From positions 9,894-73,893 of the forward strand of contig JAOBWO010000169.1 of assembly GCA_025463415.1 (NCBI GenBank): a DNA stretch of 64,000 nt. Direction: 5' to 3'. Both the position numbers and the translations under genes were made by a program. Below the pieces are notes generated by a model. The model did not search any database. It was not told the DNA's origin and saw nothing but the letters and a program-made list of their open reading frames with translations. Positions within the stretch are counted from its first letter, which is position 1; every line of letters starts with the position of its first letter. Of this stretch, positions 2,214 to 61,523 are shown piece by piece. Source of the DNA: Acidimicrobiales bacterium (GTDB lineage: Bacteria > Actinomycetota > Acidimicrobiia > Acidimicrobiales > Ilumatobacteraceae).

Positions 2214-3185
2214 TCAGAACACTGCGATCGGGTTCACCGGCGAGCCCGTGCCGCCTGGCACCCGCATCGGCGAGACCGACATCAGGAACTCCCAGCGGTG
2301 CAGCCGCCGGCAGACCTCCGTCACCGTGTCGAGGCGGAGGTTGTCGATCAGGTGCAGTCCGATCGCGACGATGCCGATCTGATGGACGGGGAACGGCCAC
2401 TCCGGGATCGCCGTGAACGGCATCTGGTCGGAGATGCCGTCGCCGGCCAGCAGCGCGACCTTGCGCTCGTGCAGCCACGGCAGCGTGCGCGGGTGGAGGC
2501 CCGGTAGGCCTTTGAAGAACGGGTCGAGACGTCCGTTGCTCGCTGCCTTGCGACTGTCCCGCCCGGTGGAGACGATCAGGAGGTCGCCCGTGCCCACTGT
2601 GACGCCCTGCGCCGCCTCGGCGGCCTCGAGATCGGCGACCGTGATCGAGGACGTCGGATCGATGAAGTCGACCCCGCGCACGAGGGGGATGTCGAGCAGC
2701 ACTCCCCGCCCGAGGACACCCTCCGATGCGGACATGATGGTGTTCGCCAGCGCGCCCGTGCTGCGCACCATCGACGCCGGCCGGCCGCCGTACATCTCGC
2801 CCCGCACGAACATGTGGCACAGCGCGTCGATGTGGGTGAGGCCGAGCCCGTGGACCGCCGTGCCGAGGTAGTCCTGCGTGGCCTCGTAGTCGGGGACGCC
2901 GCTGGAGCCGAGCGCATCGCCGCTGGACAGCATGTGGTGGTGCGCCGGACTGGGCGTCTCCGGGGTCGGGCGGGTGGTGAGGTCGTGGGCCATGCTCACC
3001 GCCTCGCCGGTGCGCACGAGCGTCGCGGCGTGTGCGCGATGTGCATCGGTGAGGTGGTTGAGCGCGCCGCGTTCGTCGTCGGCACCCCACGTCGTCCAGT
3101 TCTTGACGGCCTCGAAGATGCGGTCGAGCTCTGCGGTGGTCGGCAGATCCGGGGCTTGGAGCGCGGGGGAGGGTTGGTCGGACAT
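2214..3185 (-). CDS. cyclase-family protein (kynurenine-formamidase-like fold)
   Basis: 323-aa ORF with GTAVHGLGLTHIDALCHM and GDGISDQ motifs, as in the putative cyclase family. ATG start at 3183-3185. Confidence 0.75.
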   Translation of the reverse strand: MSDQPSPALQAPDLPTTAELDRIFEAVKNWTTWGADDERGALNHLTDAHRAHAATLVRTGEAVSMAHDLTTRPTPETPSPAHHHMLSSGDALGSSGVPDYEATQDYLGTAVHGLGLTHIDALCHMFVRGEMYGGRPASMVRSTGALANTIMSASEGVLGRGVLLDIPLVRGVDFIDPTSSITVADLEAAEAAQGVTVGTGDLLIVSTGRDSRKAASNGRLDPFFKGLPGLHPRTLPWLHERKVALLAGDGISDQMPFTAIPEWPFPVHQIGIVAIGLHLIDNLRLDTVTEVCRRLHRWEFLMSVSPMRVPGGTGSPVNPIAVF

Positions 3186-3318
3186 CGATCAAGGTCTAGA
3201 CGAACTGCGGGGGTGACGCCGGAACGGAGCTTCACATGCGGCAGAATTGACGCAAGAGATCCGGGCGGACGCTCTCACGGTGCCGATCTGTGGCGCCCCT
3301 GCACCATTGGACAGACGT

Positions 3319-4503
3319 ATGCATCCTCATCGCACCACCACGACCTCCACCATGTGGCGCTCCGCGCTGGTCCTCGTAGCGCTGGCCGCGGGAGCCGCGA
3401 GCTGCAGCAGCAATGCCAAGTCGGCCGAGACCACGGCTGCGGCACCCGCATCGACCGCTCCGCGCACCACACAGGCGGCCACCACGACGGCCGCCACCGA
3501 AGCGCCGACGACGACCACGGAGGTGCCGACGACGACGACCGACGCCCTGCAGGGAACGACGGGTCGCACGGTGCCGGAGACCACGACGACCCTGCCGCCG
3601 GAGACGACCACCACCCTGCCGCCCGAGCCTGTGTATCCGCTCACCGGGCTGCCGAACCCGGATCCGGCGATCGCGGCGCGGCCGGCGTTGATCGTCAAGA
3701 TCGACAACGCGCCGGGCGCTCGGCCGCAGAGCGGGTTCAACGAGGCCGACATCGTCGTCGAGGAGATCGTCAACGACAACCTGACCCGGTTCGCGATGGT
3801 GTTCCAGAGCGGCAACGCCAGCGCCGTCGGCCCGATCCGTTCGGGCCGCCTCCAGGACGTCAACATCTTCTCCTCGCTCGACCACCCCCTGTTCGCCTGG
3901 AGCGGCGGCAACAAGACGGTCACCGACACGATCAACGCCAGCGAGCTGATCAACATCGGACCGTCCAAGGCTGCCGTGTACTACCGCACCCACGACAAGG
4001 CCGCGCCGCACAACCTCTACTCGTCCACCGATGCCCTCTTCGGCCGCGCGGTCGAAGGTGAGCCGGCCGCCAAGCAGCAGTTCGAGTACCGGGCTGCCGA
4101 CGCTGCGCCGGGCGGCTCGCCGAGTCCGGGCGTCGGCATCTCGCTCGACAGCATCGATGTCCGGTGGGACTGGAACGCGTCGACCGGCCTGTACGAGCGG
4201 ACGATGGAGGGCAAGGCCCACAACGACGCGCTCAGCGGACGGGTCACCACCAACAACGTCGTCGTGCTGGCGATGGAGTACGTGCCCGGGATCTCACACA
4301 GCCCCGACGCGCAGGTGCTCGGCGGCGGCGAAGCCTTCGTGTTCACCGGCGGCAACTACATCCATGCCCAGTGGGTCAAGCAGGACATCCACGACCCCTT
4401 CTCGCTGCTGGCCGACGACGGCACGCCGATCCTGCTGACCCCAGGCCGCACGTTCATCGAGCTCCCCCGGATCGGCCACACCCTGGTCATCCCGGCGAGT
4501 TAG
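3319..4503 (+). CDS. DUF3048-like secreted lipoprotein
   Basis: Lipoprotein-type signal (MWRSALVLVALAAGAASCSS), then a T/P-rich linker, then YPLTGLP...RPALIVKIDNAPGARPQSGFNEADIVVEEIVNDNLTRFAMVF, typical of DUF3048. The start may be 3319 (MHPH) or 3352 (MWRS); the track ORF begins at 3247. Confidence 0.75.
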   Translation: MHPHRTTTTSTMWRSALVLVALAAGAASCSSNAKSAETTAAAPASTAPRTTQAATTTAATEAPTTTTEVPTTTTDALQGTTGRTVPETTTTLPPETTTTLPPEPVYPLTGLPNPDPAIAARPALIVKIDNAPGARPQSGFNEADIVVEEIVNDNLTRFAMVFQSGNASAVGPIRSGRLQDVNIFSSLDHPLFAWSGGNKTVTDTINASELINIGPSKAAVYYRTHDKAAPHNLYSSTDALFGRAVEGEPAAKQQFEYRAADAAPGGSPSPGVGISLDSIDVRWDWNASTGLYERTMEGKAHNDALSGRVTTNNVVVLAMEYVPGISHSPDAQVLGGGEAFVFTGGNYIHAQWVKQDIHDPFSLLADDGTPILLTPGRTFIELPRIGHTLVIPAS

Positions 4504-5520: not shown

Positions 5521-6975
5521 GTGTACGTTCGTCTGATCGCCACCACCTTCCATTCGGAGCGCTTCGACGCGGTGGTCGTCGGGGCCGGGCCCAACGGGCT
5601 GGCTGCAGCGGTGACCCTGGCCGAGGCCGGGCGTTCAGTGCTGGTGCTCGAGGGGTCGGATTCGATCGGCGGGGGCACGCGCTCGGCGGCGCTGACCCTG
5701 CCGGGTTTCGTCCACGACGTGTGTGCGGCCGTGCACGCGCTGGGCATCGCATCGCCTGCGTTCGCGGAGATGCAGCTCGACCGCCACGGTCTGGAGTGGA
5801 TCCACCCGGGTGTGCCACTGGCGCATCCGCTCGACGGCGGTCGAGCCGGTGTGCTGCACCGCACGCTCGGCGACACGATGGACGGCATGGGCGCAGATGG
5901 TGCCGCGTGGCGGCGAATGTTCGAGCCACTCCTGCGCCACTGGGACGACATCCTCCCGCAGATCCTCGGGCCCATCGTGAGCGTCCCGAGGCATCCGCTG
6001 GCGATGGCCCAGTTCGGGATGCGAGCGCTGCCACCCGCGTCGATCGCCCAGCGGGCGTTCTCCACGGAAGAGGCGGCGGCACTGTTCGGCGGCTGCTCGG
6101 CCCACGCGTTCTTGCCGCTCACCCGCCCGCTGTCGGCAGCGTTCGGGACGATGCTGGCTCTCATCGCGCAGGCCACCGGCTGGCCCGTCGCAAAGGGTGG
6201 CTCGCAGGCGGTCGCCGATGCGATGGCTGCGCGGCTGCGCGAGCTCGGCGGAGTGATCGAGACCGGTCGCGCTGTCGCCTCGCTACGCGACCTCCCTCCC
6301 CACCGCGTCGCCTTCTTCGACACCAATCCCGCCCAGCTCGAGCGGATCGCCGGCAGCACCTTGCCCGACGGCTACCGCCGGCGGCTGCGCAACTTCCGCC
6401 ACGGGCCCGCTGCGTTCAAGATCGACTACGCACTCGACGGTCCGGTGCCGTGGACGAACGAGGCATGCCGGACCGCCGGCACCGTGCACGTCGGCGGCAC
6501 GTTCGCCGAGATCCGCGACGCGGAGGCCGACTGCGCCGCGGGCCGGATGCCGGCGCGACCGTTCGTGCTCGTTGCCCAACAGAGCCTGTTCGACCCGAGC
6601 CGCGCGCCGGCCGGCAAGCACACCCTGTGGGCCTACGCACACGTTCCACACGCATCGCCGGTCGACGCCACCGACGCGCTGGAGGCGCAGATCGAACGGT
6701 TCGCACCGGGCTTCCGCGACCTGATCCTGGCCAAGCACGTGATGGCACCCCTGGCGCTCCAGGAGTACAACCCGAACTACGTCGGCGGCGACATCGGCGG
6801 CGGTGCGCACAGCGGCGCCCAGCTCGTGTTCCGGCCGACCTTCGGCCTCCGTTCGTACGTCACGCCGAACCCGCGCATCCTGCTCTGCTCGGCATCCACG
6901 CCACCGGGTGGCGGAGTGCACGGCATGGCCGGCCGGCGTGCTGCGCACACGGCGCTGGCCGGCGTGCTGCGCTAG
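5521..6975 (+). CDS. FAD/NAD(P)-dependent oxidoreductase, phytoene-desaturase (CrtI-like) family
   Basis: Rossmann motif FDAVVVGAGPNGLAAAVTLAEAGRSVLVLEG right after an in-frame GTG at 5521. C-terminal ...PPGGGVHGMAG is typical of the family. The upstream part of the 627-aa track ORF (5092-5520) looks non-coding. Confidence 0.8.
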   Translation: MYVRLIATTFHSERFDAVVVGAGPNGLAAAVTLAEAGRSVLVLEGSDSIGGGTRSAALTLPGFVHDVCAAVHALGIASPAFAEMQLDRHGLEWIHPGVPLAHPLDGGRAGVLHRTLGDTMDGMGADGAAWRRMFEPLLRHWDDILPQILGPIVSVPRHPLAMAQFGMRALPPASIAQRAFSTEEAAALFGGCSAHAFLPLTRPLSAAFGTMLALIAQATGWPVAKGGSQAVADAMAARLRELGGVIETGRAVASLRDLPPHRVAFFDTNPAQLERIAGSTLPDGYRRRLRNFRHGPAAFKIDYALDGPVPWTNEACRTAGTVHVGGTFAEIRDAEADCAAGRMPARPFVLVAQQSLFDPSRAPAGKHTLWAYAHVPHASPVDATDALEAQIERFAPGFRDLILAKHVMAPLALQEYNPNYVGGDIGGGAHSGAQLVFRPTFGLRSYVTPNPRILLCSASTPPGGGVHGMAGRRAAHTALAGVLR

Positions 6976-7712
6976 ACCGATCCGGCGAGCTCGATCCCGG
7001 TCGTCTCGATCGACGAGTACGGCAGGTGGGCGAAGAACGAGTCGGCCTGCTTGACCAGCTTGCGGATCGCGACGTAGTTCGACCCCCCGCCGACGAGCGC
7101 GCCGACGCCGAGCGGCAGTGCCGTTCCCAGTGCGATCGCGCCACGACGCGTGCCGTAGCGCTTGACGAGCATCCGGCTCAGAGCCCCGTTGACCGCGCGC
7201 AAGGTGGCGAGCGAGAGCCCGGCCTTGGAGTTCTCCTCGATGTTCGCCCCCATCTGGTTGGCGATCTTCGAGAACCCTTGGCGTGCGGTGCTGCCGAAGA
7301 TCAGCACGGCCAGGACCCACGCCCGGCGCTCGTCGACGGACGGCGTCGGACGACCGTGCAACGCAGCGATCGTCAGGATCAGGTCGCCCGAGCGAGCGGT
7401 GAACCACGCCAGCTCGGCTGTGGCGGCCATCAAGGTCGCGCCCGTGCCGACCAGCGGTGTCGCGGCGGCCATCCCGGCGGCAGCGCCGACTGCGCCGAGC
7501 TCTCGAGCGAACGAATCGGACAGCGACTTGATCTTCTCCGGCCGCACGTCGCCGGGCAACGCCTCCGCCCGCGCGACGGCGGCCTCCCAACGCGCTGTCG
7601 TCGTCTTCTCGACGCCGGCCAGCAGCGCCTTCGCGACGACCTCCACGTCCACCGTGGAGAGCCGCCGCATCACGTAGTCACGTGCCGCGACGGAACGACG
7701 TTTGTCCATCAC
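6972..7712 (-). CDS. EcsC-like family protein
   Basis: 246-aa ORF. Gly/Ala-rich segments (AVGAAAGMAAATPLVGTGA..., ALPLGVGALVGGGSNYVAIRKL) resemble the EcsC family pattern. This is a from-memory match only. Confidence 0.5.
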   Translation of the reverse strand: MMDKRRSVAARDYVMRRLSTVDVEVVAKALLAGVEKTTTARWEAAVARAEALPGDVRPEKIKSLSDSFARELGAVGAAAGMAAATPLVGTGATLMAATAELAWFTARSGDLILTIAALHGRPTPSVDERRAWVLAVLIFGSTARQGFSKIANQMGANIEENSKAGLSLATLRAVNGALSRMLVKRYGTRRGAIALGTALPLGVGALVGGGSNYVAIRKLVKQADSFFAHLPYSSIETTGIELAGSV

Positions 7713-7771
7713 CCATGTGTAGCACCGGGGTCGCGGGACAGGCTGCGCGACCCGTTGGCTAGATTGGCGCG

Positions 7772-8773
7772 GTGACCCAGACCGAGCTGCCCATCTCTGC
7801 GTTCGGGATCCAGCCGGAGGATCTCGAACGGCACCGCCGTGAGCTGACCGGCTACTGCTACCGGATGCTCGGCTCCGTGTTCGAGGCCGAAGATGCGGTG
7901 CAGGACACGATGGTGCGTGCCTGGCGCGCCGCTGATCGCTTCGAGGGGCGCTCGTCGCTGCGCTCCTGGTTGTACCGCATCGCCACCAACGCGTGCCTCG
8001 ACATGCTGCGCGCCCGCGGACGCCGGGCCCGACCGATGGACATGGGCCCGTCGATCAAAGCGGACAGCGCCCTGCCGGACATGCTGCCCGAGAACGCCTG
8101 GGTCGAGCCCTTCCCCGACCGCCGACTGTTCGACGACACGGGCGATCCCGCCGAGCTGGCCGTTCGACGGTCCACGATCCGGTTCGCGTTCGTCGCCGCG
8201 CTCCAGTACCTGCCGCCGCGGCAACGGGCCGTGCTGATCCTGTGCGAGGTGCTGCGCTGGGAGGCCACCGAAGTCGCCGCGCTGCTGGACAGCACGGTCG
8301 CGTCGGTGAACAGCGCGCTGCAACGGGCCCGGGCGACGCTGGCGACCCGACACATCGACGACCTCGACTTCAGCGAGCCCGTGTCGACCAGCGCCCACCA
8401 GGCCAGGCTGCTGGCCGAGTACGTCGATGCCTTCGAGCAGTACGACATCCCCCGCCTGGTCAGCCTGCTGCGCGACGACGCGATCATGTCGATGCCGCCG
8501 TTCCCGATGTGGTTGCAAGGAGCGCACGAGATCGGCGCGTGGTTCCTCGGCACCGGGTCCGAGTGCAAGGGCTCGCGCCTCGTCGCGACGCAGGCCAACG
8601 GGGTCGTGGCATTCGGTTCGTACCGAGTGGATCCCGCGGGCGGCTACAAGCCGTGGTGCATCCAGCTGATCGACATCGACGGCGATCGCATCGTCGGGCA
8701 CCACAACTTCCTCGACACCAAGGTGTTCGAGGACTTCGGGGTGCCGGCCCACCTCGATCCTGAGTTATTCTAG
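7772..8773 (+). CDS. ECF-type sigma-70 factor with C-terminal SnoaL-like domain (SigG-like)
   Basis: Region 2 is ELTGYCYRMLGSVFEAEDAVQDTMVRAW...WLYRIATNACLDMLR. Region 4 is LPPRQRAVLILCEVLRWEATEVAALLDSTVASVNSALQRAR. A ~120-aa C-terminal extension follows. GTG start, with a TAGATT -10-like hexamer at 7760-7765. Confidence 0.85.
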   Translation: MTQTELPISAFGIQPEDLERHRRELTGYCYRMLGSVFEAEDAVQDTMVRAWRAADRFEGRSSLRSWLYRIATNACLDMLRARGRRARPMDMGPSIKADSALPDMLPENAWVEPFPDRRLFDDTGDPAELAVRRSTIRFAFVAALQYLPPRQRAVLILCEVLRWEATEVAALLDSTVASVNSALQRARATLATRHIDDLDFSEPVSTSAHQARLLAEYVDAFEQYDIPRLVSLLRDDAIMSMPPFPMWLQGAHEIGAWFLGTGSECKGSRLVATQANGVVAFGSYRVDPAGGYKPWCIQLIDIDGDRIVGHHNFLDTKVFEDFGVPAHLDPELF

Positions 8774-10146
8774 CCCAGCGCCAACGTCGCCATAGGGATC
8801 GAGAGCACGAATGCGACATCGTCGCCCACTGCTGCACACACGAGGTCGCCACCGTGGTTGCGAGCAATTCGACGCGAGATTGCCAGACCGAGCCCCGCGC
8901 CGCCCGCGTCGCTCGCTCGTGCAGCATCGAGCCGAGTGAACGGCTCGAAGATCCGCTCGCTGTCTTCGGCGTCGATCGGTGCGCCGTCGTTGGTGAAGAT
9001 CACCCGGTAGCCGATCCGATCCGTCGCGTTGGTGACCGTGATCCGCGTGCGCGCATGCCGTTGCGCGTTGTTGAGCAGGTTGCGCAGCACGCGGGTGAGG
9101 AGGTCGTCGTCACCGAGCACAGGCATGGGGCGACTCGGCATCCTCCAGGTGATCGGCACATCGCCGGGCGGGATCGAGGTGACAGCCCGGTCGATCAGCG
9201 CGGCGAGATCGAGCGCGTGGAGAGCCGGAGGCCGTCCACGGGCGTCGGTGCGGGCGAAGTCCAGCAGTTCGCCGGAGAGCCGCTCGAGGCGATCGATCTC
9301 GAGCAGGACATCGTTCGCCGTCGTCGTCCAGTCAGCCCGGTCTGGGTACGCGAGCCCGACCTCGAGCTGCGTGCGCGCTGCGGCAAGAGGGCTGCGCAGC
9401 TCGTGCGAGGCATCGGCTGCGAACTGACGCTGGCGTTGCGCGTCGGCATCGAGCCGATCGAGGAGGTGGTTGAGCGTCCTGCCCAGTCGGCCGAGCTCGT
9501 CATCGGTGTCCGGCGCCGTGACCCTCCGCTCCATCGACGAGGCCTCGATGTCGTCGACCTCGGCGCGCATCGCGTCGACAGGGCCGAGCGCGCGTCCGAC
9601 GCTGCGCCACAGCACGCACGTCGCTACGCCGACGAACAGGGGAACGCCTGCCAACAATGCCAGCGCCAGCGTGCGCACCGCATTGTCGGCCGCCTTCAAC
9701 GACGACACCCCGTAGATCACATAGCGTCCCGCCGGGGTCTCGATCGAGCGAGCCTCGATCCGGTAGCGCTCGTCAGGATCACTGTCGATCCGGCCGCCCG
9801 ACACGGTCGAGACGCGCGAGCCAACGCCCGGCGGAGCATCGATGATGTCGAGGTGGGACGTCTCCGCGAACCCGTTCGTGGCGGCGACGAGATGGTTGCT
9901 CGCGTCGTAGACCTGGATCTGGCCGATCTCGCGGCCCTTGGCCTGCAGATCCGCCGGCAGCTCACCCGACTGAGCGAGTGCGGAGACTTCATCGATCTGC
10001 TGGTTGAGCAACGCCTGGGTGTCCTCCTCCAGCGCGTGCCGCAACAGCCCCGCCACTGCGATTGCGCCGACCACCAGCACGATTGCGATCAGGCCACCAG
10101 CGGCGACCGTCACGCGGAGTCGCAGCGAGCGACGACGGCGGGCCAT
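8770..10146 (-). CDS. sensor histidine kinase (HAMP-HisKA-HATPase)
   Basis: TM segments followed by DDELGRLGRTLNHLLDRL (HAMP), an H-box FAADASHELRSPL, and N/G boxes LRNLLNNAQRHA...GGAGLGLAISRRIA. Start taken at MARRRRSL (ATG 10144-10146), 1 nt after the stop of the upstream response regulator. Confidence 0.85.
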   Translation of the reverse strand: MARRRRSLRLRVTVAAGGLIAIVLVVGAIAVAGLLRHALEEDTQALLNQQIDEVSALAQSGELPADLQAKGREIGQIQVYDASNHLVAATNGFAETSHLDIIDAPPGVGSRVSTVSGGRIDSDPDERYRIEARSIETPAGRYVIYGVSSLKAADNAVRTLALALLAGVPLFVGVATCVLWRSVGRALGPVDAMRAEVDDIEASSMERRVTAPDTDDELGRLGRTLNHLLDRLDADAQRQRQFAADASHELRSPLAAARTQLEVGLAYPDRADWTTTANDVLLEIDRLERLSGELLDFARTDARGRPPALHALDLAALIDRAVTSIPPGDVPITWRMPSRPMPVLGDDDLLTRVLRNLLNNAQRHARTRITVTNATDRIGYRVIFTNDGAPIDAEDSERIFEPFTRLDAARASDAGGAGLGLAISRRIARNHGGDLVCAAVGDDVAFVLSIPMATLALG

Positions 10147-54630: not shown

Positions 54631-54739
54631 GCAGACGATGGTAAGCGGGCAGCGGTGCGGGACCCCGGCATTGTCAAGGATTGACCAAGGGTGGCGCTCT
54701 GCGAAGATCTCTCGCGCTCGCTGTCGATCCGGCGTGGAT

Positions 54740-54763
54740 CCGTTCGACGCAGTGTTCGAACGG
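54740..54763. promoter_or_regulatory. 8-8-8 inverted repeat upstream of the YciI-sigma operon
   Basis: CCGTTCGA (54740-54747), 8-nt spacer, TCGAACGG (54756-54763). It lies 27 nt upstream of the first candidate start of the YciI gene. Confidence 0.3.
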
Positions 54764-54789: not shown

Positions 54790-55146
54790 ATGGAGCACAC
54801 GATGCGATTCCTCGGATACACCCTCGGTGACGAAGCAGCCCCGATGCCCGCCCCCACGCCAGAGTTGATGGAGGCGATGGGTCGGTTCATGGAGGAGGCC
54901 ACGACGGCCGGCGTGATCGTCGCCACAGGCGGCATCGCCCCGACGTCCATGGGTGCACGGATCACGCTCAGCGACGGGAACTACACCGTCATCGACGGCC
55001 CGTTCACCGAAGCGAAGGAGCTGATCGGGGGCTGGGCGTTGATGGAGTGCCGCGACCTCGAAGAGGCCATCGAGTGGTCGAAGCGCTTCATCGGCGTCCT
55101 CGGCGAGGGCGAAGTCCGCGTCCGACCGGTGTTCGGCCCCGCCTGA
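54790..55146 (+). CDS. YciI-family (DGPF domain) protein
   Basis: MRFLGYTLGDE...VIDGPFTEAKELIGGWALMECRDLEEAIEWSKR. The start is 54790 (MEHTM) or 54802 (MRFLG). Confidence 0.8.
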   Translation: MEHTMRFLGYTLGDEAAPMPAPTPELMEAMGRFMEEATTAGVIVATGGIAPTSMGARITLSDGNYTVIDGPFTEAKELIGGWALMECRDLEEAIEWSKRFIGVLGEGEVRVRPVFGPA

Positions 55147-55198: not shown

Positions 55199-56479
55199 GT
55201 GAGCGCAGTCGACCCGCGAGCCGCCGTCGAAGCGGTGTTCCGCATCGAGTCCGCCCGCCTCGTCGGCGGGCTGACTCGGACGGTGGGCGATCTCGGACTG
55301 GCCGAGGAGCTGGCCCAGGATGCGCTCGTCGACGCGCTCCGGCAGTGGCCCGTGGAAGGCACCCCGCGCAACCCCGGCGCATGGTTGATGACGGTCGCCA
55401 AACGCAAGGCCATCGACCGCTTCCGCCGCGACAGGTCGCTGGCAGCCAAGTACGCACTGGTCGGCGTCGACGTGTCCACGCTCGACTCCGACGATGACTC
55501 GGCGACGGCGGTCGGCCCGATGGAGGACGACCGTCTGCGGCTGATGTTCGTGGCGTGCCATCCCGTGTTGTCGGTCCAGGCACGGGCGGCATTGACGCTC
55601 CGGGTCATCGGCGGACTGACCACGTCGGAGATCGCACGCGCCTACCTCCAGGCCGAACCCACGATCGCGCAGCGCATCGTGCGGGCGAAGAAGACGATCG
55701 CCGATGCGGGTGTGAAGTTCGAGGTGCCGGCGGGTGCCGAACTGGCGATTCGGCTCGGCTCCGTCCTCGAGGTCATCTACGTGATCTTCAACGAGGGCTA
55801 CTCCGCCACCGCAGGTGAGGACTGGCTCCGCGCCGATCTTTGCGGCGAGGCGGTGCGCCTCGGGCGGTTGCTGGCCGCTCTGGCGCCCGGCGAATCTGAG
55901 GCCCACGGCTTGCTCTCGCTGATGGAGATCCAGTCGTCGCGCCTCGCCGCACGTGTCGGTGCGGACGGCGAGCCGATCCTGTTGCTCGATCAGGATCGTC
56001 GGCAGTGGGACCGGTTGCTGATCGGTCGCGGCCTCGCCGCGCTGGACCGTTCGATGGCGCTCGCTGCCACACCCGGCCCGTACGCCCTGCAGGCGGCGAT
56101 CGCTGCCTGCCACGCCCGCGCCGTGCGCGCGGCGGACACCGATTGGGAGGAGGTCGCCCGCCTCTACGGCGTGCTGGCCGCAGCCATGCCGTCGCCGATC
56201 GTCGAGCTCAACCGAGCCGTCGCGTTGTCGATGGCCTACGGCCCTGCAGCAGGACTCGACCTCGTCGACCAGCTCCGCGAAACCCGATTGCTCGACGGCT
56301 ACCACCTCCTCCACAGCGTGCGCGGTGATCTGCTCGCCAAGCTCGGTCGACACGCCGAGGCAACCGTCGAATTCGACCTCGCTGCGGACCTCGCCGGCAA
56401 CGAAGCCGAGCGACGGCTCTCCGCGGCACGCGCCGCGCTCAGTCGGACCAGCGCAGAAATACTCGATCAGCCCCCTTGA
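55199..56479 (+). CDS. ECF-type sigma factor with long C-terminal extension (DUF6596-type; typical YciI partner)
   Basis: AVFRIESARLVGGLTRTVGDLGLAEELAQDALVDALRQWPVEGTPRNPGAWLMTVAKRKAIDRFRR plus region 4 LTLRVIGGLTTSEIARAYLQAEPTIAQRIVRAKK. GTG start. Confidence 0.85.
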   Translation: MSAVDPRAAVEAVFRIESARLVGGLTRTVGDLGLAEELAQDALVDALRQWPVEGTPRNPGAWLMTVAKRKAIDRFRRDRSLAAKYALVGVDVSTLDSDDDSATAVGPMEDDRLRLMFVACHPVLSVQARAALTLRVIGGLTTSEIARAYLQAEPTIAQRIVRAKKTIADAGVKFEVPAGAELAIRLGSVLEVIYVIFNEGYSATAGEDWLRADLCGEAVRLGRLLAALAPGESEAHGLLSLMEIQSSRLAARVGADGEPILLLDQDRRQWDRLLIGRGLAALDRSMALAATPGPYALQAAIAACHARAVRAADTDWEEVARLYGVLAAAMPSPIVELNRAVALSMAYGPAAGLDLVDQLRETRLLDGYHLLHSVRGDLLAKLGRHAEATVEFDLAADLAGNEAERRLSAARAALSRTSAEILDQPP

Positions 56480-56549
56480 ACGAGCCGCCATGCAGCCGAC
56501 TGAGGCGTCGATGAACCTCTAGAAATCGGCAAGGCGAAAGGAGAACACA

Positions 56550-56981
56550 ATGGCTGCCAGGGCTGGGCAAGCACACGGGAGAAAGGTCAGGCGACGATTC
56601 CGACGCGGCGCGCTGATCATGATCGGCGTCGGCGCCTTCGGCGTTGCCGGTGCCTCTGCGGCGAGCCTTGGTGGGCTCACGTCGCAGGGAGTGGGAGCCG
56701 ACAACGGCACGGTGTCCAGTTGTGACACCGATGGCGTGACGATCGCCTACACGACGGCATACGACTCGACGGCCGGCCTGTACAAGGTCACCAGCGTCAC
56801 CGTCAGTGGCATCAACGCTTCGTGCAACGCGAAGACCTTGAACGTCACCCTCGCCGACAGCTCGAACGCATCGCTCGGGTCCGGCTCGGCGACGATCGCC
56901 GGAACATCGCAAGCGGTGACGATCTCACCGACAGCCAACGCCAAGCTCGTCGTCGGCGCCGCACTTCTGGTCACGGGCTGA
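56550..56981 (+). CDS. small secreted protein, TasA/SipW-substrate-like signal (paralog 1)
   Basis: AAAGGAG Shine-Dalgarno sequence 7 nt upstream. The n-region is RKVRRRFRRG, the h-region ALIMIGVGAFGVAGASAAS, then LGGLT. The ~95-aa mature part has two Cys and ends in AKLVVGAALLVTG. Confidence 0.7.
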   Translation: MAARAGQAHGRKVRRRFRRGALIMIGVGAFGVAGASAASLGGLTSQGVGADNGTVSSCDTDGVTIAYTTAYDSTAGLYKVTSVTVSGINASCNAKTLNVTLADSSNASLGSGSATIAGTSQAVTISPTANAKLVVGAALLVTG

Positions 56982-56983
56982 CC

Positions 56984-57631
56984 GTGTCGAGCGTCGGGAA
57001 GGCTCACGGGCGCACTCGCCGACGGCGAGCCGTGCTGGCGCTCGAGATCGCCGGGATCGTCGCACTCGTGCTCGCGGCCGCCGTGTTGTGGCCGGTGCAG
57101 TTGGGTGGATCGTCATCAGTCATCATCGTCCACGGCGTGTCGATGGAACCGACGTTGGACAGCGGCGACGTCGTCGTGCTGCGCATCGCGTCGGACTACC
57201 ACGTCGGCGACATCGTCGCCTACCGGATCCCTGCGGGCAACGCCGGTGCGGGCAACCTGATCATCCACCGCATTGTGGGCGTCTCGGCCCGCGGGTTCGT
57301 GATGCGCGGCGATCACCGCTCCACGAGCGACGCGTGGTTCCCCTCCGCACACGACATCGTCGGCCGAGTCGTGGTCCATGTGCCGCTGCTCGGCGACCGC
57401 TTCTGGAGCGCGCTTCCGTGGCTGTTCGGCGCGGTGCTCGGGCTCGGGTTGATCCTGTACTTCTGGAGCCCTCGCGATCCTGAGACCGAGGACGCAGAGA
57501 CCGAGCCGTCGCTGGTCCGCTGGGCGGCCCCGAACCCGGAGGACCGCGTGGGCGAGCCGATCGACTCGGTCGAATTCGATGGGTTCCTGCAGCGACTGTT
57601 CGAGCACGAGTCCGAATCGGTGCAGCGATGA
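56984..57631 (+). CDS. signal peptidase I, ER/archaeal (SipW-like) type
   Basis: N-terminal TM, catalytic Ser box VHGVSMEPTLDSGD, His box LIIHRIVGV (no Lys box), GDHRSTSD, and a C-terminal TM LPWLFGAVLGLGLILYFW. GTG at 56984, 2 nt after the upstream stop. Confidence 0.8.
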   Translation: MSSVGKAHGRTRRRRAVLALEIAGIVALVLAAAVLWPVQLGGSSSVIIVHGVSMEPTLDSGDVVVLRIASDYHVGDIVAYRIPAGNAGAGNLIIHRIVGVSARGFVMRGDHRSTSDAWFPSAHDIVGRVVVHVPLLGDRFWSALPWLFGAVLGLGLILYFWSPRDPETEDAETEPSLVRWAAPNPEDRVGEPIDSVEFDGFLQRLFEHESESVQR

Positions 57632-57714
57632 GGCGGCGAGCGGTGCCCCGACGATCATCGACGGCCACAACGGAATCCCGACCAACCGACCAACCAACAC
57701 CAGGGGCGGAGCCC

Positions 57715-58164
57715 ATGCAGCACATGCACACCACACAGGAGATCGCCGAGGCGGTTCCCGGCAGACGTCTCGGGCGACGCTTTCGACGCGGGTCAATGAT
57801 CATGATGGGAGTCGGCGCGTTCGGCGTCGCCGGTGCCTCTGCTGCCAGCCTCGGTGGGCTCACGGCACAACAGATCGGCGCCGACAACGGTGCCGTCGCG
57901 AGCTGCGACACCGACGGCGTGACCCTCGCGTACACGAGCGCGTACGACGCGACGACGGGCGTGTACAGGATCACCACCGTGACCGTGAGCGGCCTCAACG
58001 TCGCGTGCAACGCGAAGACGTTGAACGTGACCCTGACCGACGCCTCGAACGCGTCGATCGGCACCGGCTCGGCGACGATCGCCAGCACCTCCCAGGCCGT
58101 GACGATGTCGCCCACGGCCAGCGCCAAACTCGTCGTCGGCGCAGCTCTGCTCGTGACGGGCTGA
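57715..58164 (+). CDS. small secreted protein, TasA/SipW-substrate-like signal (paralog 2)
   Basis: 100 of the last 126 residues are identical to paralog 1 (ungapped, counted by eye). Same RRFRRG / GVGAFGVAGASAASLGGLT leader and identical C-terminus AKLVVGAALLVTG. Confidence 0.7.
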   Translation: MQHMHTTQEIAEAVPGRRLGRRFRRGSMIMMGVGAFGVAGASAASLGGLTAQQIGADNGAVASCDTDGVTLAYTSAYDATTGVYRITTVTVSGLNVACNAKTLNVTLTDASNASIGTGSATIASTSQAVTMSPTASAKLVVGAALLVTG

Positions 58165-58181
58165 CCTCTCGGAGGCCGCTC

Positions 58182-58874
58182 ATGCCCAGGCGTCGATTGC
58201 TCGGGATGCTGCTCGTCGCGGCCGTGCTGGCGATGCCGGCGGCCGTCGCCGCGAAGTCACTCGGGTCGGTGACGTCGAAATCACTCGGGGCGTGGGTGCT
58301 GACCGGTGGACCGAGCGTGCCGACCGTCGTCGCCTGGACCCCGTTCACCGGCACGGACGGCACGAGCCTGGTCGGCCAGACGCTGAACGGCACCGGCACC
58401 TGGGCTTCGGACTCCGGCACGTGGACGATCTCCTCGAACCGGGCCGGCACCCCGACCAGCAGCCTCGGCAACCTCGACATCCACGTCGGAACCCAGAACG
58501 CGACGGTCGTCGTGACCCTCACGATCGGGGCGAGCGCGAACGCTGGCGTCGTCGCGCTGCGCAACAACAGCAACGTCGCGCTGTTCGCGACCTACTCGCT
58601 CGCGAGCGGAGGCACGATCCAGCTGAACAAGTTCAGCGGCACGACCACGAACCTCGCGACGGTGACGGGCGTCGGCACACCATCGACCGCTGAGTTCAAG
58701 CTGGACGCGACGACCAACACGATCAAGATCTCGTTCAACGGCACACAGGTGATGTCATACGCGCTCTCGGCCGGCGACATCACTGCGCTGAAAGCCGCTG
58801 CGAACGATCGCTTCGGCATCTTCGCCGACAACGACGGCGTGACCCGCTTCGACGACTTCCACGTCGACACCTGA
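58182..58874 (+). CDS. secreted beta-rich protein (lectin/LamG-like C-terminus), unknown function
   Basis: Signal is MPRRRLLGMLLVAAVLAMPAAVAAKSLG. The protein is T/G/S-rich and ends ...FGIFADNDGVTRFDDFHVDT. Confidence 0.65.
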   Translation: MPRRRLLGMLLVAAVLAMPAAVAAKSLGSVTSKSLGAWVLTGGPSVPTVVAWTPFTGTDGTSLVGQTLNGTGTWASDSGTWTISSNRAGTPTSSLGNLDIHVGTQNATVVVTLTIGASANAGVVALRNNSNVALFATYSLASGGTIQLNKFSGTTTNLATVTGVGTPSTAEFKLDATTNTIKISFNGTQVMSYALSAGDITALKAAANDRFGIFADNDGVTRFDDFHVDT

Positions 58875-58917: not shown

Positions 58918-59298
58918 TCAGCGGGCGGGTTGGAACAGCTCGACGAGGTTGCCCGACGGATCGATGACGAGCACCTGAGCGCCGCCCGGACCGGTGACGA
59001 CCTCGTTCCGGAAGCGAACACCTTCCGTCGCCAGCCGGCTGATCTCGGCCTCGATGTCGTCGACGACGAGATGGATCCGGTTCCACCCTCCTGGTGCGGG
59101 TCGCTCTCCGTCGTTCATCGGTTTGCCGGCCGAGCTCTGTGGTCCGGAGAGCAGCAGTCGCAGGTTGCCGAGCGTGACCTCCGCGAACGCAGGGCTGGCG
59201 ATCCCGGCGATGAACCCGAAGTGTCGGGTGTAGAAGTCCGTGCTCGCGCCGACGTCGTCGACGAGGTAGCGGACGTTGACGGTCTCTGGATCAGTCAT
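58918..59298 (-). CDS. VOC/glyoxalase-family protein
   Basis: MTDPETVNVRYLVDDVGASTDFYTRHFGF...WNRIHLVVDDIEAEISRL...IDPSGNLVELFQP. 8-nt overlap with the upstream gene. Confidence 0.85.
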   Translation of the reverse strand: MTDPETVNVRYLVDDVGASTDFYTRHFGFIAGIASPAFAEVTLGNLRLLLSGPQSSAGKPMNDGERPAPGGWNRIHLVVDDIEAEISRLATEGVRFRNEVVTGPGGAQVLVIDPSGNLVELFQPAR

Positions 59299-60061
59299 GG
59301 CGTGTCTCCTGTGTTGTTCGGGCGCCGAGCTCGGCGAGCAGCAGCGCAACCCGGTCCTCGATGTCGTCGGCGACGCGCTGGAATGCGTCTTCGATCGCTC
59401 GTTCATCCCCTGCTGCGGCGGGATCCGGAATGCTCCAGTGCGATGCCGTCGGCGAGCCGGGGAACTCCGGACAGATCTCGCGCACCTTGTCGCACAGGGT
59501 GATGACCCGGTCGAATCGGCTCCGCGCAAATCGGGTGAGCGGCTTGCTGGAGCGGTCGGCGATGTCGATGGCTCGTTCGGCCAGCACGCGCACGGCGAAC
59601 GGGTGGAGTGGCTTGGGGTCGCTGCCGGCGCTACGAGCAGCCACCGTGCCACCGGATCGATGCTCGACGAGCGCTTCCGCGATCTGCGACCGAGCGCTGT
59701 TGCCAGTGCACAGGAAGAGCACCCGCGGCTGACTCCGGTGGCGCACCGTGGCCCTGGATTGCTGCGAGATGTTCGAGTGGCCCGGATGGAGGGAGAGACC
59801 GACCTCGGCGAGGAGGTCGCTGCATCGCGCGACGTGGACCCGGTAGTAGACGTCGCGTCCGTCTGCCGAGCTTCGCCGAGCCGTCACGATGCCCGCCCGA
59901 CGGAGCTCTCCGAGGTGGTACGACACCAAGTTCTGCGGCTTGCGCACCAACTCCACCAACTCACCCGTGCGGCGATCGCTGCACCCCAGCTCGAGGACCA
60001 GCTGCCAACGCAACGGATCGCTCAACAGGCCGAGGATCGCTGGAGGTCCGTTCGCTTCCAT
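59291..60061 (-). CDS. ArsR/SmtB HTH fused to LMW-PTP-type arsenate reductase
   Basis: HTH is LSDPLRWQLVLELGCSDRRTGELVELVRKPQNLVSYHLGELRRAGIV. P-loop is LFLCTGNSARSQ (CX5R), and ITLCDKVREICP carries the Cys pair of thioredoxin-coupled ArsC. Confidence 0.85.
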   Translation of the reverse strand: MEANGPPAILGLLSDPLRWQLVLELGCSDRRTGELVELVRKPQNLVSYHLGELRRAGIVTARRSSADGRDVYYRVHVARCSDLLAEVGLSLHPGHSNISQQSRATVRHRSQPRVLFLCTGNSARSQIAEALVEHRSGGTVAARSAGSDPKPLHPFAVRVLAERAIDIADRSSKPLTRFARSRFDRVITLCDKVREICPEFPGSPTASHWSIPDPAAAGDERAIEDAFQRVADDIEDRVALLLAELGARTTQETRHD

Positions 60062-60130: not shown

Positions 60131-61426
60131 TCAGAGCGTCGGCAGGTTCTGTTGTCGGCCGATCAGCGCGGCGAGCGGATCGCCGCATCGCAGCAGGCGT
60201 TCACCGATGTTGTCGATGTTCCAGCGGTCACTGCGCAGTTCCGGATCGTCGAGCTCGTCCCAGGTGATGGGTACCGAGACAGGCGCTCCCGGCGCGGGTC
60301 GAACGGCGAACGGGGCGACGAGGGTCTTGTTGATCGCGTTCTGAGAGAAGTCGAGGCGGGAGAGCCCGTCTCGGTTGGCCGTCTCCCACTCCCAGCTGAC
60401 GGTGTCGGGGACGACCTTCCCGATCGTGCGTGACAACTGCTCGACCCATCGCCGGGTGTCGGTGAACGAGTAGCCGTCGCGCACGGGCATCCAGATCTGG
60501 ATACCGCGCTTGCCCGTCACCTTCGGGCATCCATCGATCTGCAGATGTTCCAACGCAGTGCGGTGCAGCCGGGCAAGCGTCAACAGCTCATCGAACGTGG
60601 TCCGCTCGCCCGGGTCGATGTCGATCATCGCCCACGTCGGTTGGTGAGGATGGGCGGCGGTCGATGTCCACGGATGGAGCTCGATCGCTCCGAAGTTCGC
60701 AGCCCACGCCAACGACGCAGGCGAGTCCAAGATCGCGTAGGTCTGCGTCTCGCCTGGATCGGCTTCGTCGCTGTCCCAGCGGGTCAGCCAGTCGGGAGCG
60801 TGGGCGGGCGCGGCCTTGTGCCAGAAGCCCGGCTTGGCGATGCCGTCGGGAGAGCGATGCAGGTTGATCGGGCGTCCCGCCGTGTACGGCAGGATCGACG
60901 GCGCGAACGTCGCGTAGTGGCGGACGAGGTCGCGTTTGGTTCGCGCCGGCTGACCGTCGCTCGCGGGGAACAGCACCTTGTCGAGGTTCGTCAAGCGAAC
61001 GGTTCGCCCGCCGATCACCCACTCTCCCGCCTTGCGGATGGCGTCGAGCTCAGCGAGCTCGCCGGGTGTCGGAGCTGCCCAGATCGCCGAGCTGTTCCAG
61101 GTCGCGGCCGGCGCCACCTTCACCTCGTCGTTCGTGCGTCCCGACTTCACCGACAGTGGGTGATCGTCGATCCGCCAGCCGGTGAGCGCATGCTCGTCGT
61201 GCTTGTGGATGAGCAACCACTGCTCCCGCTCGCTTCTGCTGGCCCGATGACGCTGCACCACGAAGCGTCGACCGTCGGGTGTCGGAGGATGCCCGAGGGC
61301 TCGATCCGTTGTGGGAGTGCCCGATGGCTCGGGTGTCGCGTCGAAGTCGCGCTTGCGGCGGTAGGTGGTCAGACGATCCTCATCGTCGACCGTTGTCGTT
61401 GCTCCGTGGCTACCTCGACGCGGCAT
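60131..61426 (-). CDS. LigD polymerase/primase-domain protein (NHEJ) with vestigial N-terminal phosphoesterase segment
   Basis: The polymerase domain is VRLTNLDKVLFP...TKRDLVRHY...GRPINLHRSPDG...ELHPW...MIDIDPG...KVTGKRGIQIWMPV...SRLDFSQNAINKTLVAPFAVRP. The N-terminus YRRKRDFDATPEP...RFVVQRHRASR jumps straight to WLLIHKHDEHA. Confidence 0.85.
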   Translation of the reverse strand: MPRRGSHGATTTVDDEDRLTTYRRKRDFDATPEPSGTPTTDRALGHPPTPDGRRFVVQRHRASRSEREQWLLIHKHDEHALTGWRIDDHPLSVKSGRTNDEVKVAPAATWNSSAIWAAPTPGELAELDAIRKAGEWVIGGRTVRLTNLDKVLFPASDGQPARTKRDLVRHYATFAPSILPYTAGRPINLHRSPDGIAKPGFWHKAAPAHAPDWLTRWDSDEADPGETQTYAILDSPASLAWAANFGAIELHPWTSTAAHPHQPTWAMIDIDPGERTTFDELLTLARLHRTALEHLQIDGCPKVTGKRGIQIWMPVRDGYSFTDTRRWVEQLSRTIGKVVPDTVSWEWETANRDGLSRLDFSQNAINKTLVAPFAVRPAPGAPVSVPITWDELDDPELRSDRWNIDNIGERLLRCGDPLAALIGRQQNLPTL

Positions 61427-61523
61427 GGCCGGATCTCTACCCGGCCAGCCGATCATGAAACGATCGCGGGCCATCGAACAACGGTGCGCAGACGCCTCAC
61501 CGCAGGCGGAGGCGACACCGAGA

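Follow-up and report, generated by a model that had tools for sequence, protein, structure and literature searches.

Donor-strand fibres are often encoded together with a TIGR02228 signal peptidase, minor or tip subunits, and LPXTG or SLH anchors (PMC9674648, PMC10151520, PMC9245690, bioRxiv 10.64898/2026.01.04.697558). In TasA and AbpA, the mature N-terminus that follows the cut is the donor strand (PMC9674648, PMC9245690, PMC10151520, bioRxiv 10.64898/2026.01.04.697558). Here we analysed a four-gene cluster at positions 56550–58874 of a 64,000-nucleotide (nt) window, the whole stretch of DNA under study, from contig JAOBWO010000169.1 of an Acidimicrobiales bacterium. The cluster encodes two paralogous small secreted proteins (small A and small B), a signal peptidase I of the endoplasmic reticulum (ER)/archaeal/SipW type and a 230-aa accessory protein. 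It is very probably a module of a private peptidase and its cognate substrates. That it also forms a complete unit for exporting and assembling a fibre of the cell surface or matrix, similar to tapA-sipW-tasA with a different minimal subunit, is a proposition we hold to be evenly poised.

The TasA superfamily (TasA, AbpA, AbpX, Tafi and the Sulfolobus threads) resembles the cluster in several respects. In both, a private TIGR02228 peptidase is encoded beside the major subunit or subunits, and an accessory protein carries the same N-terminal element; some lineages here also have tip-like proteins and an LPXTG anchor, and the mature N-terminus is predicted to start directly past an A-x-A cut. 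In contrast, the small proteins show no detectable homology to the superfamily in Pfam, NCBIfam or PDB sequence searches or among the 50 Foldseek matches listed. Their predicted fold is an 86-residue, six-stranded immunoglobulin (Ig)-like sandwich in a mature protein of ~106 aa, about half the size or less of the TasA-type subunits, which are jelly rolls of at least ~160 aa. Further differences are the motif ASLGGLTSxSLGAD, the ConA/CBM66-like lectin fold of the accessory protein and a peptidase that is not a SipW equivalog. The analogy with tapA-sipW-tasA, drawn in the initial annotation, holds for organisation and probably for mechanism, not for homology: the private peptidase with cognate secreted proteins as a conserved set was borne out, whereas TasA homology, fold and gene order were not.

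Gene set, peptidase and shared N-terminal module

The four genes lie on the + strand in the order small A (56550–56981, 143 aa), signal peptidase (56984–57631, 215 aa), small B (57715–58164, 149 aa) and accessory protein (58182–58874, 230 aa); the open reading frames of both paralogues, the peptidase and the 230-aa protein were all found where the initial annotation had placed them. They end a run of six consecutive genes on one strand, headed by genes for a YCII-domain protein and an extracytoplasmic function (ECF) sigma factor, in a region of 66–69% G+C. Because the genes further downstream converge on this run and bear no relation to it (they encode a glyoxalase, an ArsR-LMWPc fusion, LigD Prim-Pol and an APH-like kinase), the module was taken to comprise four genes. 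The peptidase frame is open from 56822, and its likely start is the GTG at 56984, 3 nt past the small A stop, as called in the orthologue of locus L074. For small B, the gene caller gave an alternative start at 57724 (146 aa, P0002). The Shine-Dalgarno sequence AAGGAG is present 6 nt ahead of the small A ATG; it had been described as the strongest in the window, but with 13 occurrences of AAGGAG observed there against 11 expected, it has no real distinction.

Conservation was assessed in 67 loci (cited by L numbers) from a pattern scan of GTDB species representatives, built on 12 closer sequences. Gene content was read by local hidden Markov models (HMMs) on six-frame translations of all loci, 60 of which were assessable. 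A peptidase gene was located on the same strand, at most 3 kb from the small gene or genes, in 56/60 loci. Recurring in that many loci of other genomes, the arrangement is far beyond chance, and the conservation in relatives on which the earlier reading depended was thus found. The 230-aa type was present in 31 loci, and the small gene occurred in 1 to 7 copies per locus. The loci belonged to Acidimicrobiia (Ilumatobacteraceae, Microthrixaceae, Acidimicrobiaceae), Thermoleophilia (Gaiellaceae, Solirubrobacterales), a few Actinomycetes, including the cultured Pseudactinotalea suaedae and P. terrae, and one Limnocylindria. The usual gene order was small(n)-big-peptidase; the order in the window, small-peptidase-small-big, is atypical and common to its closest relatives L006, L074 and L075.

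The peptidase passed the cut-off of NCBIfam TIGR02228 (archaeal/ER-type signal peptidase I; 64.9 bits, cut-off 51.85) and scored 25.4 against Pfam Peptidase_S26 (cut-off 22.9), its Pfam assignment being Peptidase_S26/S24; its L070 orthologue reached 60.8 bits with TIGR02228. The best PDB relative was human SEC11A (7P2P, E = 1.8e-5), whose SMEP, HR and GDN..D motifs align with GVS53MEP, IIH95RIV and GD110HRSTSD116. Catalytic candidates are Ser53 (GVSMEP), His95 (IIHRIV) and Asp110/Asp116 (GDHRSTSD). By direct reading, the sole Lys is K6, ahead of the first membrane span (TM1, residues ~16–36), which excludes a Ser-Lys dyad. The second span (TM2, residues ~141–162, FWSALPWLFGAVLGLGLILYFW) is followed by an acidic C-terminal tail. 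The description of a SipW-like S26 peptidase with GVSMEPTL, IIHRIVG, no Lys dyad and a C-terminal span therefore stood, also on alignment. Against the Bacillus SipW equivalog model NF046067, the protein scored 21.1 bits, below the cut-off of 190. Judging by these matches, it is the same type of enzyme as SipW and not an orthologue. Its co-location with the small genes in 56/60 loci, together with the invariant A-x-A site described below, suggests that it cleaves the signal peptides of its neighbours.

Small A and small B are identical at 97 of 123 aligned positions (79%, E = 7e-70), close to the 100/126 previously counted by eye, and small B scored 182 with the local HMM. Both contain the common leader GVGAFGVAGASAASLGGLT, the identical C-terminal strand AKLVVGAALLVTG, the Arg-rich n-region and the two Cys residues previously noted. 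Residues 1–37 of small A form the signal peptide, with an RRRFRRG n-region, a 14-residue h-region and the predicted cleavage site A35-S36-A37; the extension ASLGGLTSQGVGADNGTVSS occupies residues 38–57 and the Ig-like sandwich with C58 and C92 residues 58–143. The corresponding parts of small B are a predicted cleavage site at A41-S42-A43|A44, an extension at residues 44–63 and a sandwich at residues 64–149. Both proteins end in ...LLVTG without a tail. Export by the twin-arginine (Tat) route was considered on account of RRRFRRG and dropped, as the n-regions of relatives consist of KK or a single K/R.

Relatives of the small proteins recovered by a word-seeded search numbered 64, all labelled 'hypothetical', and came from metagenome-assembled genomes (MAGs) of Acidimicrobiales/Ilumatobacteraceae. 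The full HMM scan of 1.84 billion representatives, clustered at 50% identity, yielded 2192 clusters at E ≤ 1e-3 and 1085 at E ≤ 1e-10. Small A and small B matched no family in Pfam (E ≤ 1) or NCBIfam (E ≤ 10), and no Pfam or NCBIfam family recurred among 145 relatives (E ≤ 0.01), where the few single-member matches lay outside the small domain. The family profile found nothing among PDB sequences at E ≤ 10 beyond chance matches to chymosin. TIGR04088 and TIGR04089 describe secreted actinobacterial proteins with a conserved signal-peptide region, encoded beside an archaeal-type signal peptidase. These models for SipW-cognate or alternate-type signal peptides, to which the initial annotation had pointed, matched neither small A, small B and the 230-aa protein (E ≤ 10) nor any of the 145 relatives (E ≤ 0.01); the likeness extends to the conserved signal-peptide region and the neighbouring peptidase, while the motif differs. 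As far as these profiles reach, the small proteins constitute a large, unannotated family that belongs to no described one.

Two representatives of the family, P0081 (304 aa) and P0089 (315 aa), are longer. In one, a signal-peptidase match is combined with a C-terminal small domain; in the other, a CBM96/DNRLRE domain comes after the small domain. Genuine fusion could account for them, as could a gene-calling error or a frameshift.

Column statistics over 145 diverse family members located the strongest constraint around the signal peptide. A37 was present in 145/145 sequences and A35 in 134/145 (92%), position 36 was tolerant (F/M/L), and the h-region measured 14–15 residues; invariant A37, A35 and a tolerant −2 position fit the (−3,−1) pattern of signal peptidases. 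The 20 residues past A37 were as strongly conserved as the core of the domain. Conserved positions after the cut were A38, L40 (134/145), G41 (128), a hydrophobic residue at 43, L/V/I48 (hydrophobic in 140), G49 (141), A50, V55 (129), S57, C58 and D59. The two Cys are near-invariant, C58 being found in 144/145 sequences and C92 in at least 90%. At the other end, positions 137, 139, 140 and 141 were all hydrophobic, and almost all family members stopped 0–6 residues past the C-terminal strand.

The same N-terminal module, namely a signal peptide, the A-x-A site and a stretch of ~13–20 residues (ASLGGLTSxSLGAD), was found in all cognate proteins. Profile-profile comparison of the small and 230-aa families with hhalign gave a probability of 94% (E = 1.4e-7), with an alignment that covered only the 62 columns at the N-terminus. 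In the 230-aa protein, the signal peptide, with its site at V22-A23-A24|K25, is followed by KSLGSVTSKSLGA (residues 25–37), and ten homologues conserve GASAASLNG...LGxW at this terminus. The module also occurs on CBM96/DNRLRE proteins of Gaiellaceae and on ~500-aa proteins of Pseudactinotalea/Ruaniaceae. By alignment, then, one N-terminal module is combined with interchangeable C-terminal domains, either a six-stranded sandwich or a carbohydrate-binding-like domain.

Variant loci were also observed. L003 (4541–10132; same record as L041, also seen in L004) contains five tandem small paralogues, a 220-aa partner and a peptidase; immediately beside these, the other strand holds a second peptidase gene and two divergent small genes (motif AFAAGFNVTS...), which looks like two systems placed back to back. 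L026 (~6920–7615) and L024, L028, L033, L036 and L039, from Gaiellaceae/Thermoleophilia, substitute a CBM96/DNRLRE protein, likewise headed by the N-terminal module (AVAATLGVSSTKLTTS), for the ConA-like 230-aa protein. Such loci encode a second, divergent small subunit that ends in ...HVSITGP.

Predicted folds and the candidate fibre

The AlphaFold2 (AF2) model of small A showed a six-stranded sandwich at residues 57–143, with a predicted local distance difference test score (pLDDT) above 90, and left residues 16–54 unplaced at pLDDT below 50. Foldseek comparison of the model with PDB returned only generic Ig-like domains, the best of them (E at least 0.06) from GH2 enzymes; among the 50 matches listed, none was a TasA, AbpA, thread or pilin chain. 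For the 230-aa protein, which had no match in Pfam, the only confident part was a ConA-like jelly roll at residues 94–230 (pLDDT 70–96). Its Foldseek matches included CBM66 (4azz, E = 1.9e-6, target TM-score 0.61) and many galectins (probability 1.00). The partner, previously called secreted and beta-rich, is both according to its signal peptide and this predicted fold. Given the ConA/CBM66-like fold, the protein may bind carbohydrate.

Members of the small family with a wall anchor were found directly after the peptidase gene in two Pseudactinotalea loci, L070 (P. suaedae, ~7000–7603) and L067 (a MAG, ~2980–3518). These proteins have the two Cys and an ordinary signal peptide, lack the N-terminal extension (ASLGGLT), and continue through a Pro/Thr linker to a C-terminus composed of LP(I/S)TG, a hydrophobic span and a basic tail. 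The NCBIfam LPXTG model scored the variant at 15.6, just below the cut-off of 15.9, and one homologue is labelled an LPXTG-anchored protein by JGI. In L070, the next gene (7596–9188) encodes a 530-aa protein with the motif SSATGLGGLRTQDLGG. The variant has the make-up to be expected of an acceptor-only base subunit anchored in the wall. A regular-expression scan for LPXTG detected only these motif-less variants of L067 and L070 and unrelated upstream genes, and none of the window proteins.

Upstream LPXTG proteins were noted in eight Acidimicrobiia loci, namely at 1835–2638 of L002 and similarly in L009, L016, L022, L032, L043, L044 and L045. The protein (TLPxTGDGTL...) has no Pfam match and is encoded on the same strand, 4–5 kb upstream of the small genes, with unrelated genes between. 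The small-family HMM did not match it.

For the cluster in the window, we infer the following scheme, which extends from the identity of the cutting peptidase and the precise position of its cut to polymerisation, strand exchange, polarity and sugar binding. The two small proteins and the 230-aa protein would be exported by Sec, their n-regions being ordinary and positively charged, and cut at the invariant A-x-A by the Ser53/His95 peptidase of the cluster (A37|A38 in small A). The cut would free a glycine-rich, partly hydrophobic extension of ~20 residues (ASLGGLTSxSLGAD...V..SC) ahead of the disulfide-stapled, 86-residue sandwich; in small A the extension is encoded at 56661–56720 (+ strand), the candidate donor strand. 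By donor-strand exchange, each extension would then add a beta-strand to the sandwich of the following subunit, and a thin A/B fibre would result. Having the strand and no sandwich, the 230-aa protein could join only the end with a free acceptor site, where it might serve as a lectin tip or, in the manner of TapA, nucleate the fibre or anchor it to wall glycans. N-terminal donation is preferred mainly for this polarity, in which strand plus sandwich polymerises, the strand-only lectin takes one end and the sandwich-only LPXTG protein the other. We consider fibre building by N-terminal strand exchange an even call at best.

Competing explanations

Several observations weigh against a fibre. The extension was left undocked in cis by AF2, with which simple disorder is equally compatible. 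Mean-field coupling analysis of 292 non-identical family sequences (effective number, Meff, 251) recovered the beta1-beta2 and beta4-beta5 hairpins and no strand ladder for the extension; its top coupling, G41-D61, was an indel or subfamily effect. No recognisable anchor was found in the Acidimicrobiia clusters, the window included, and a dedicated search found the anchored variant in 4 protein clusters of one small Pseudactinotalea-like clade. No filament was reported for these organisms in the literature searched. A plausible second cut, L/V48-G49-A50|D51, would moreover take off the motif and leave no donor strand. This site obeys the −3/−1 rule, with a hydrophobic residue at −3 in 140/145 sequences and A/S/G at −1 in 141/145. 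The second site, the low pLDDT of the extension and the missing coupling ladder all suit a secretion module with a dedicated peptidase and no polymerisation, whose products, secreted or associated with the wall, would be monomers or form a small complex, the stretch being only a recognition or cleavage determinant. The stretch may even be removed altogether at LGA|D, making ALIMIGVGAFGVAGASAASLGGL a long h-region. SipW-cognate signal peptides are likewise conserved upstream of the cut. We regard this explanation as unlikely, though with appreciable weight. Invariant A37 and A35 at 92% form a textbook −1/−3 pair, whereas the second site puts near-invariant G49 at −2, outside the rule, and in the Gaiellaceae CBM96 proteins it reads ...KLTT|S, a poor cut site, with A-x-A retained. 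Up to seven tandem paralogues and an acceptor-only LPXTG variant are also hard to explain for a monomer.

Within the fibre reading, the initial annotation had taken the donor to be the C-terminal strand. Type V pili offer a parallel, in that proteolysis there opens a groove that receives the C-terminal strand of the next subunit. The position of AKLVVGAALLVTG at the very end of almost all family members fits C-terminal donation, as do the hydrophobic residues at 137, 139, 140 and 141, which leave both faces partly apolar; type V pilins also have their C-terminal strands folded in cis before exchange. This strand (residues 136–142) is nevertheless integral to the AF2 monomer (pLDDT ~87–94), and in the LPXTG variant its equivalent precedes a long linker and stays in cis. 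Because the 230-aa, CBM96-type and ~500-aa partners lack this C-terminus and share the N-terminal stretch, an N-terminal donor is likelier, and C-terminal donation appears very improbable. A different explanation would make the cluster a regulon member of the adjacent ECF sigma factor, an envelope-stress output and not an autonomous module. The sigma gene ends at 56479, 70 nt upstream of small A, and no sigma-70-type promoter or terminator was found between them, so read-through is possible in this lineage. The motif TTGAAC-N15-CGAC (56476–56500, + strand) overlaps the sigma stop codon and ends ~50 nt before the small A ATG, and the ECF/YCII pair is adjacent in L073 and L074 (92% identity) as in the window. 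Adjacency is lost, however, in L075 (77% identity), where the motif is kept below a different upstream gene, and among the 60 assessable loci an ECF/YCII pair occurred in the fetched DNA of one only (L060), 3.6 kb upstream of the small gene. The motif is also unlike the TGTCGA-N17-CGAC found upstream of the YCII gene. Although the proposed sigma gene 70 nt upstream and its YCII partner are there, the association of the sigma factor with the cluster is not conserved and the dedicated regulator of the initial annotation did not hold up; membership of such a regulon is improbable.

Relation to other systems, regulation and flanking genes

Beyond the TasA superfamily, chaperone-usher pilins (type 1/P) share with the cluster a small Ig-like subunit, a conserved extension at its N-terminus in which small and hydrophobic residues alternate, and lectin tips. 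They differ in requiring a dedicated chaperone and an outer-membrane usher, neither of which is encoded in the four-gene cluster, and in polarity, which would be reversed here, the lectin protein having the strand and no pilin domain; no sequence or significant fold match links them to the small proteins. Sortase pili of Actinobacteria are likewise Gram-positive surface fibres, and the Pseudactinotalea variant has an LPXTG anchor, but the window proteins lack LPXTG, the cluster contains no sortase or pilin-motif protein, and its small proteins have a plain beta-strand as their C-terminus. Type V pili (Bacteroidota FimA/Mfa1) resemble the proposed mechanism in that an N-terminal proteolytic cut triggers strand exchange; unlike the present proteins, they have lipoprotein precursors, gingipain-type proteases, donated C-terminal strands and much larger subunits. 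Pam pili of the Candidate Phyla Radiation (CPR), a recent discovery apart from the classical Gram-negative systems, join Ig-like subunits by donor-strand exchange (bioRxiv 10.64898/2026.03.03.709456). By description they are set apart from the cluster, being reported as CPR-specific with chaperone-like PamC/PamD (bioRxiv 10.64898/2026.03.03.709456). The only relevant papers that a literature search on the small family, TIGR04088/TIGR04089 and pili in these taxa yielded were those on the TasA superfamily.

Acidimicrobiia and Thermoleophilia are mostly uncultured and occur abundantly in soils, sediments, freshwater, seawater and activated sludge. To our knowledge, no surface appendage has been described for them, and none was found in the literature searched. 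We tentatively propose that the clusters represent a previously unrecognised, minimal class of donor-strand-exchange fibre or pilus in Actinomycetota (Acidimicrobiia, Thermoleophilia and some Micrococcales). Its mature Ig-like subunit would have ~106 residues, its sole dedicated assembly factor would be an ER-type peptidase that unmasks the N-terminal strand, and its ends would be interchangeable strand-only lectins (ConA/CBM66-like, CBM96), with a sortase-anchored acceptor-only base in some lineages. If so, the subunits would be among the smallest donor-strand subunits known to us, and the design of private ER-type peptidase, strand-exchange subunit and tip or anchor would have been invented, or have diverged beyond recognition, outside the TasA superfamily. 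The small family comprises ~2000 clusters and lacks a model in Pfam and NCBIfam; defining it would give an annotation to thousands of genes now called 'hypothetical'. The presence of the system in cultured P. suaedae KACC 17839 and P. terrae KACC 16542 makes it directly testable.

The two upstream context genes encode a YCII-domain protein (54802–55146, + strand; Pfam YCII, E = 1.3e-12) and an ECF sigma factor with a C-terminal DUF6596 extension (55199–56479, + strand; Pfam Sigma70_r2, Sigma70_r4_2 and DUF6596). YCII proteins are the usual partners of sigma factors of this kind, which, with this domain set and an adjacent YCII gene, we take to be the ECF42 group. The initial annotation had suggested a search for an ECF-type promoter near 56480–56549. 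It gave the candidate TTGAAC-N15-CGAC, conserved in the window, L073, L074 and L075, as a weak lead, and no ECF42-type motif: TGTCGA-N14-19-CGTC was absent near the cluster and occurred four times in the window against five expected. The looser pattern GAAC-N14-17-CG[AT]C was found upstream of the first small gene in 11/67 loci against 2.4 expected, which is not convincing, as many occurrences lie in coding sequence and come from related loci. At 54722–54748, ~55 nt upstream of the YCII-sigma pair, TGTCGA-N17-CGAC may be the sigma factor's own promoter, presuming that a TGTCGA-type motif is characteristic of this sigma group.

Two further observations concern the flanking DNA. On the − strand, a long open reading frame (53281–~54600) encodes a protein unmatched in Pfam, composed of a hydrophobic span, a stretch rich in Ala/Thr/Pro and a C-terminal domain; the 5′ part of the frame, which overlaps the YCII and sigma genes, is probably spurious. 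Downstream of the cluster, also on the − strand, the gene at 59291–60061 encodes an ArsR-type helix-turn-helix domain fused to a low-molecular-weight phosphatase/ArsC-like domain and adjoins the LigD primase-polymerase gene (60131–61474, − strand).

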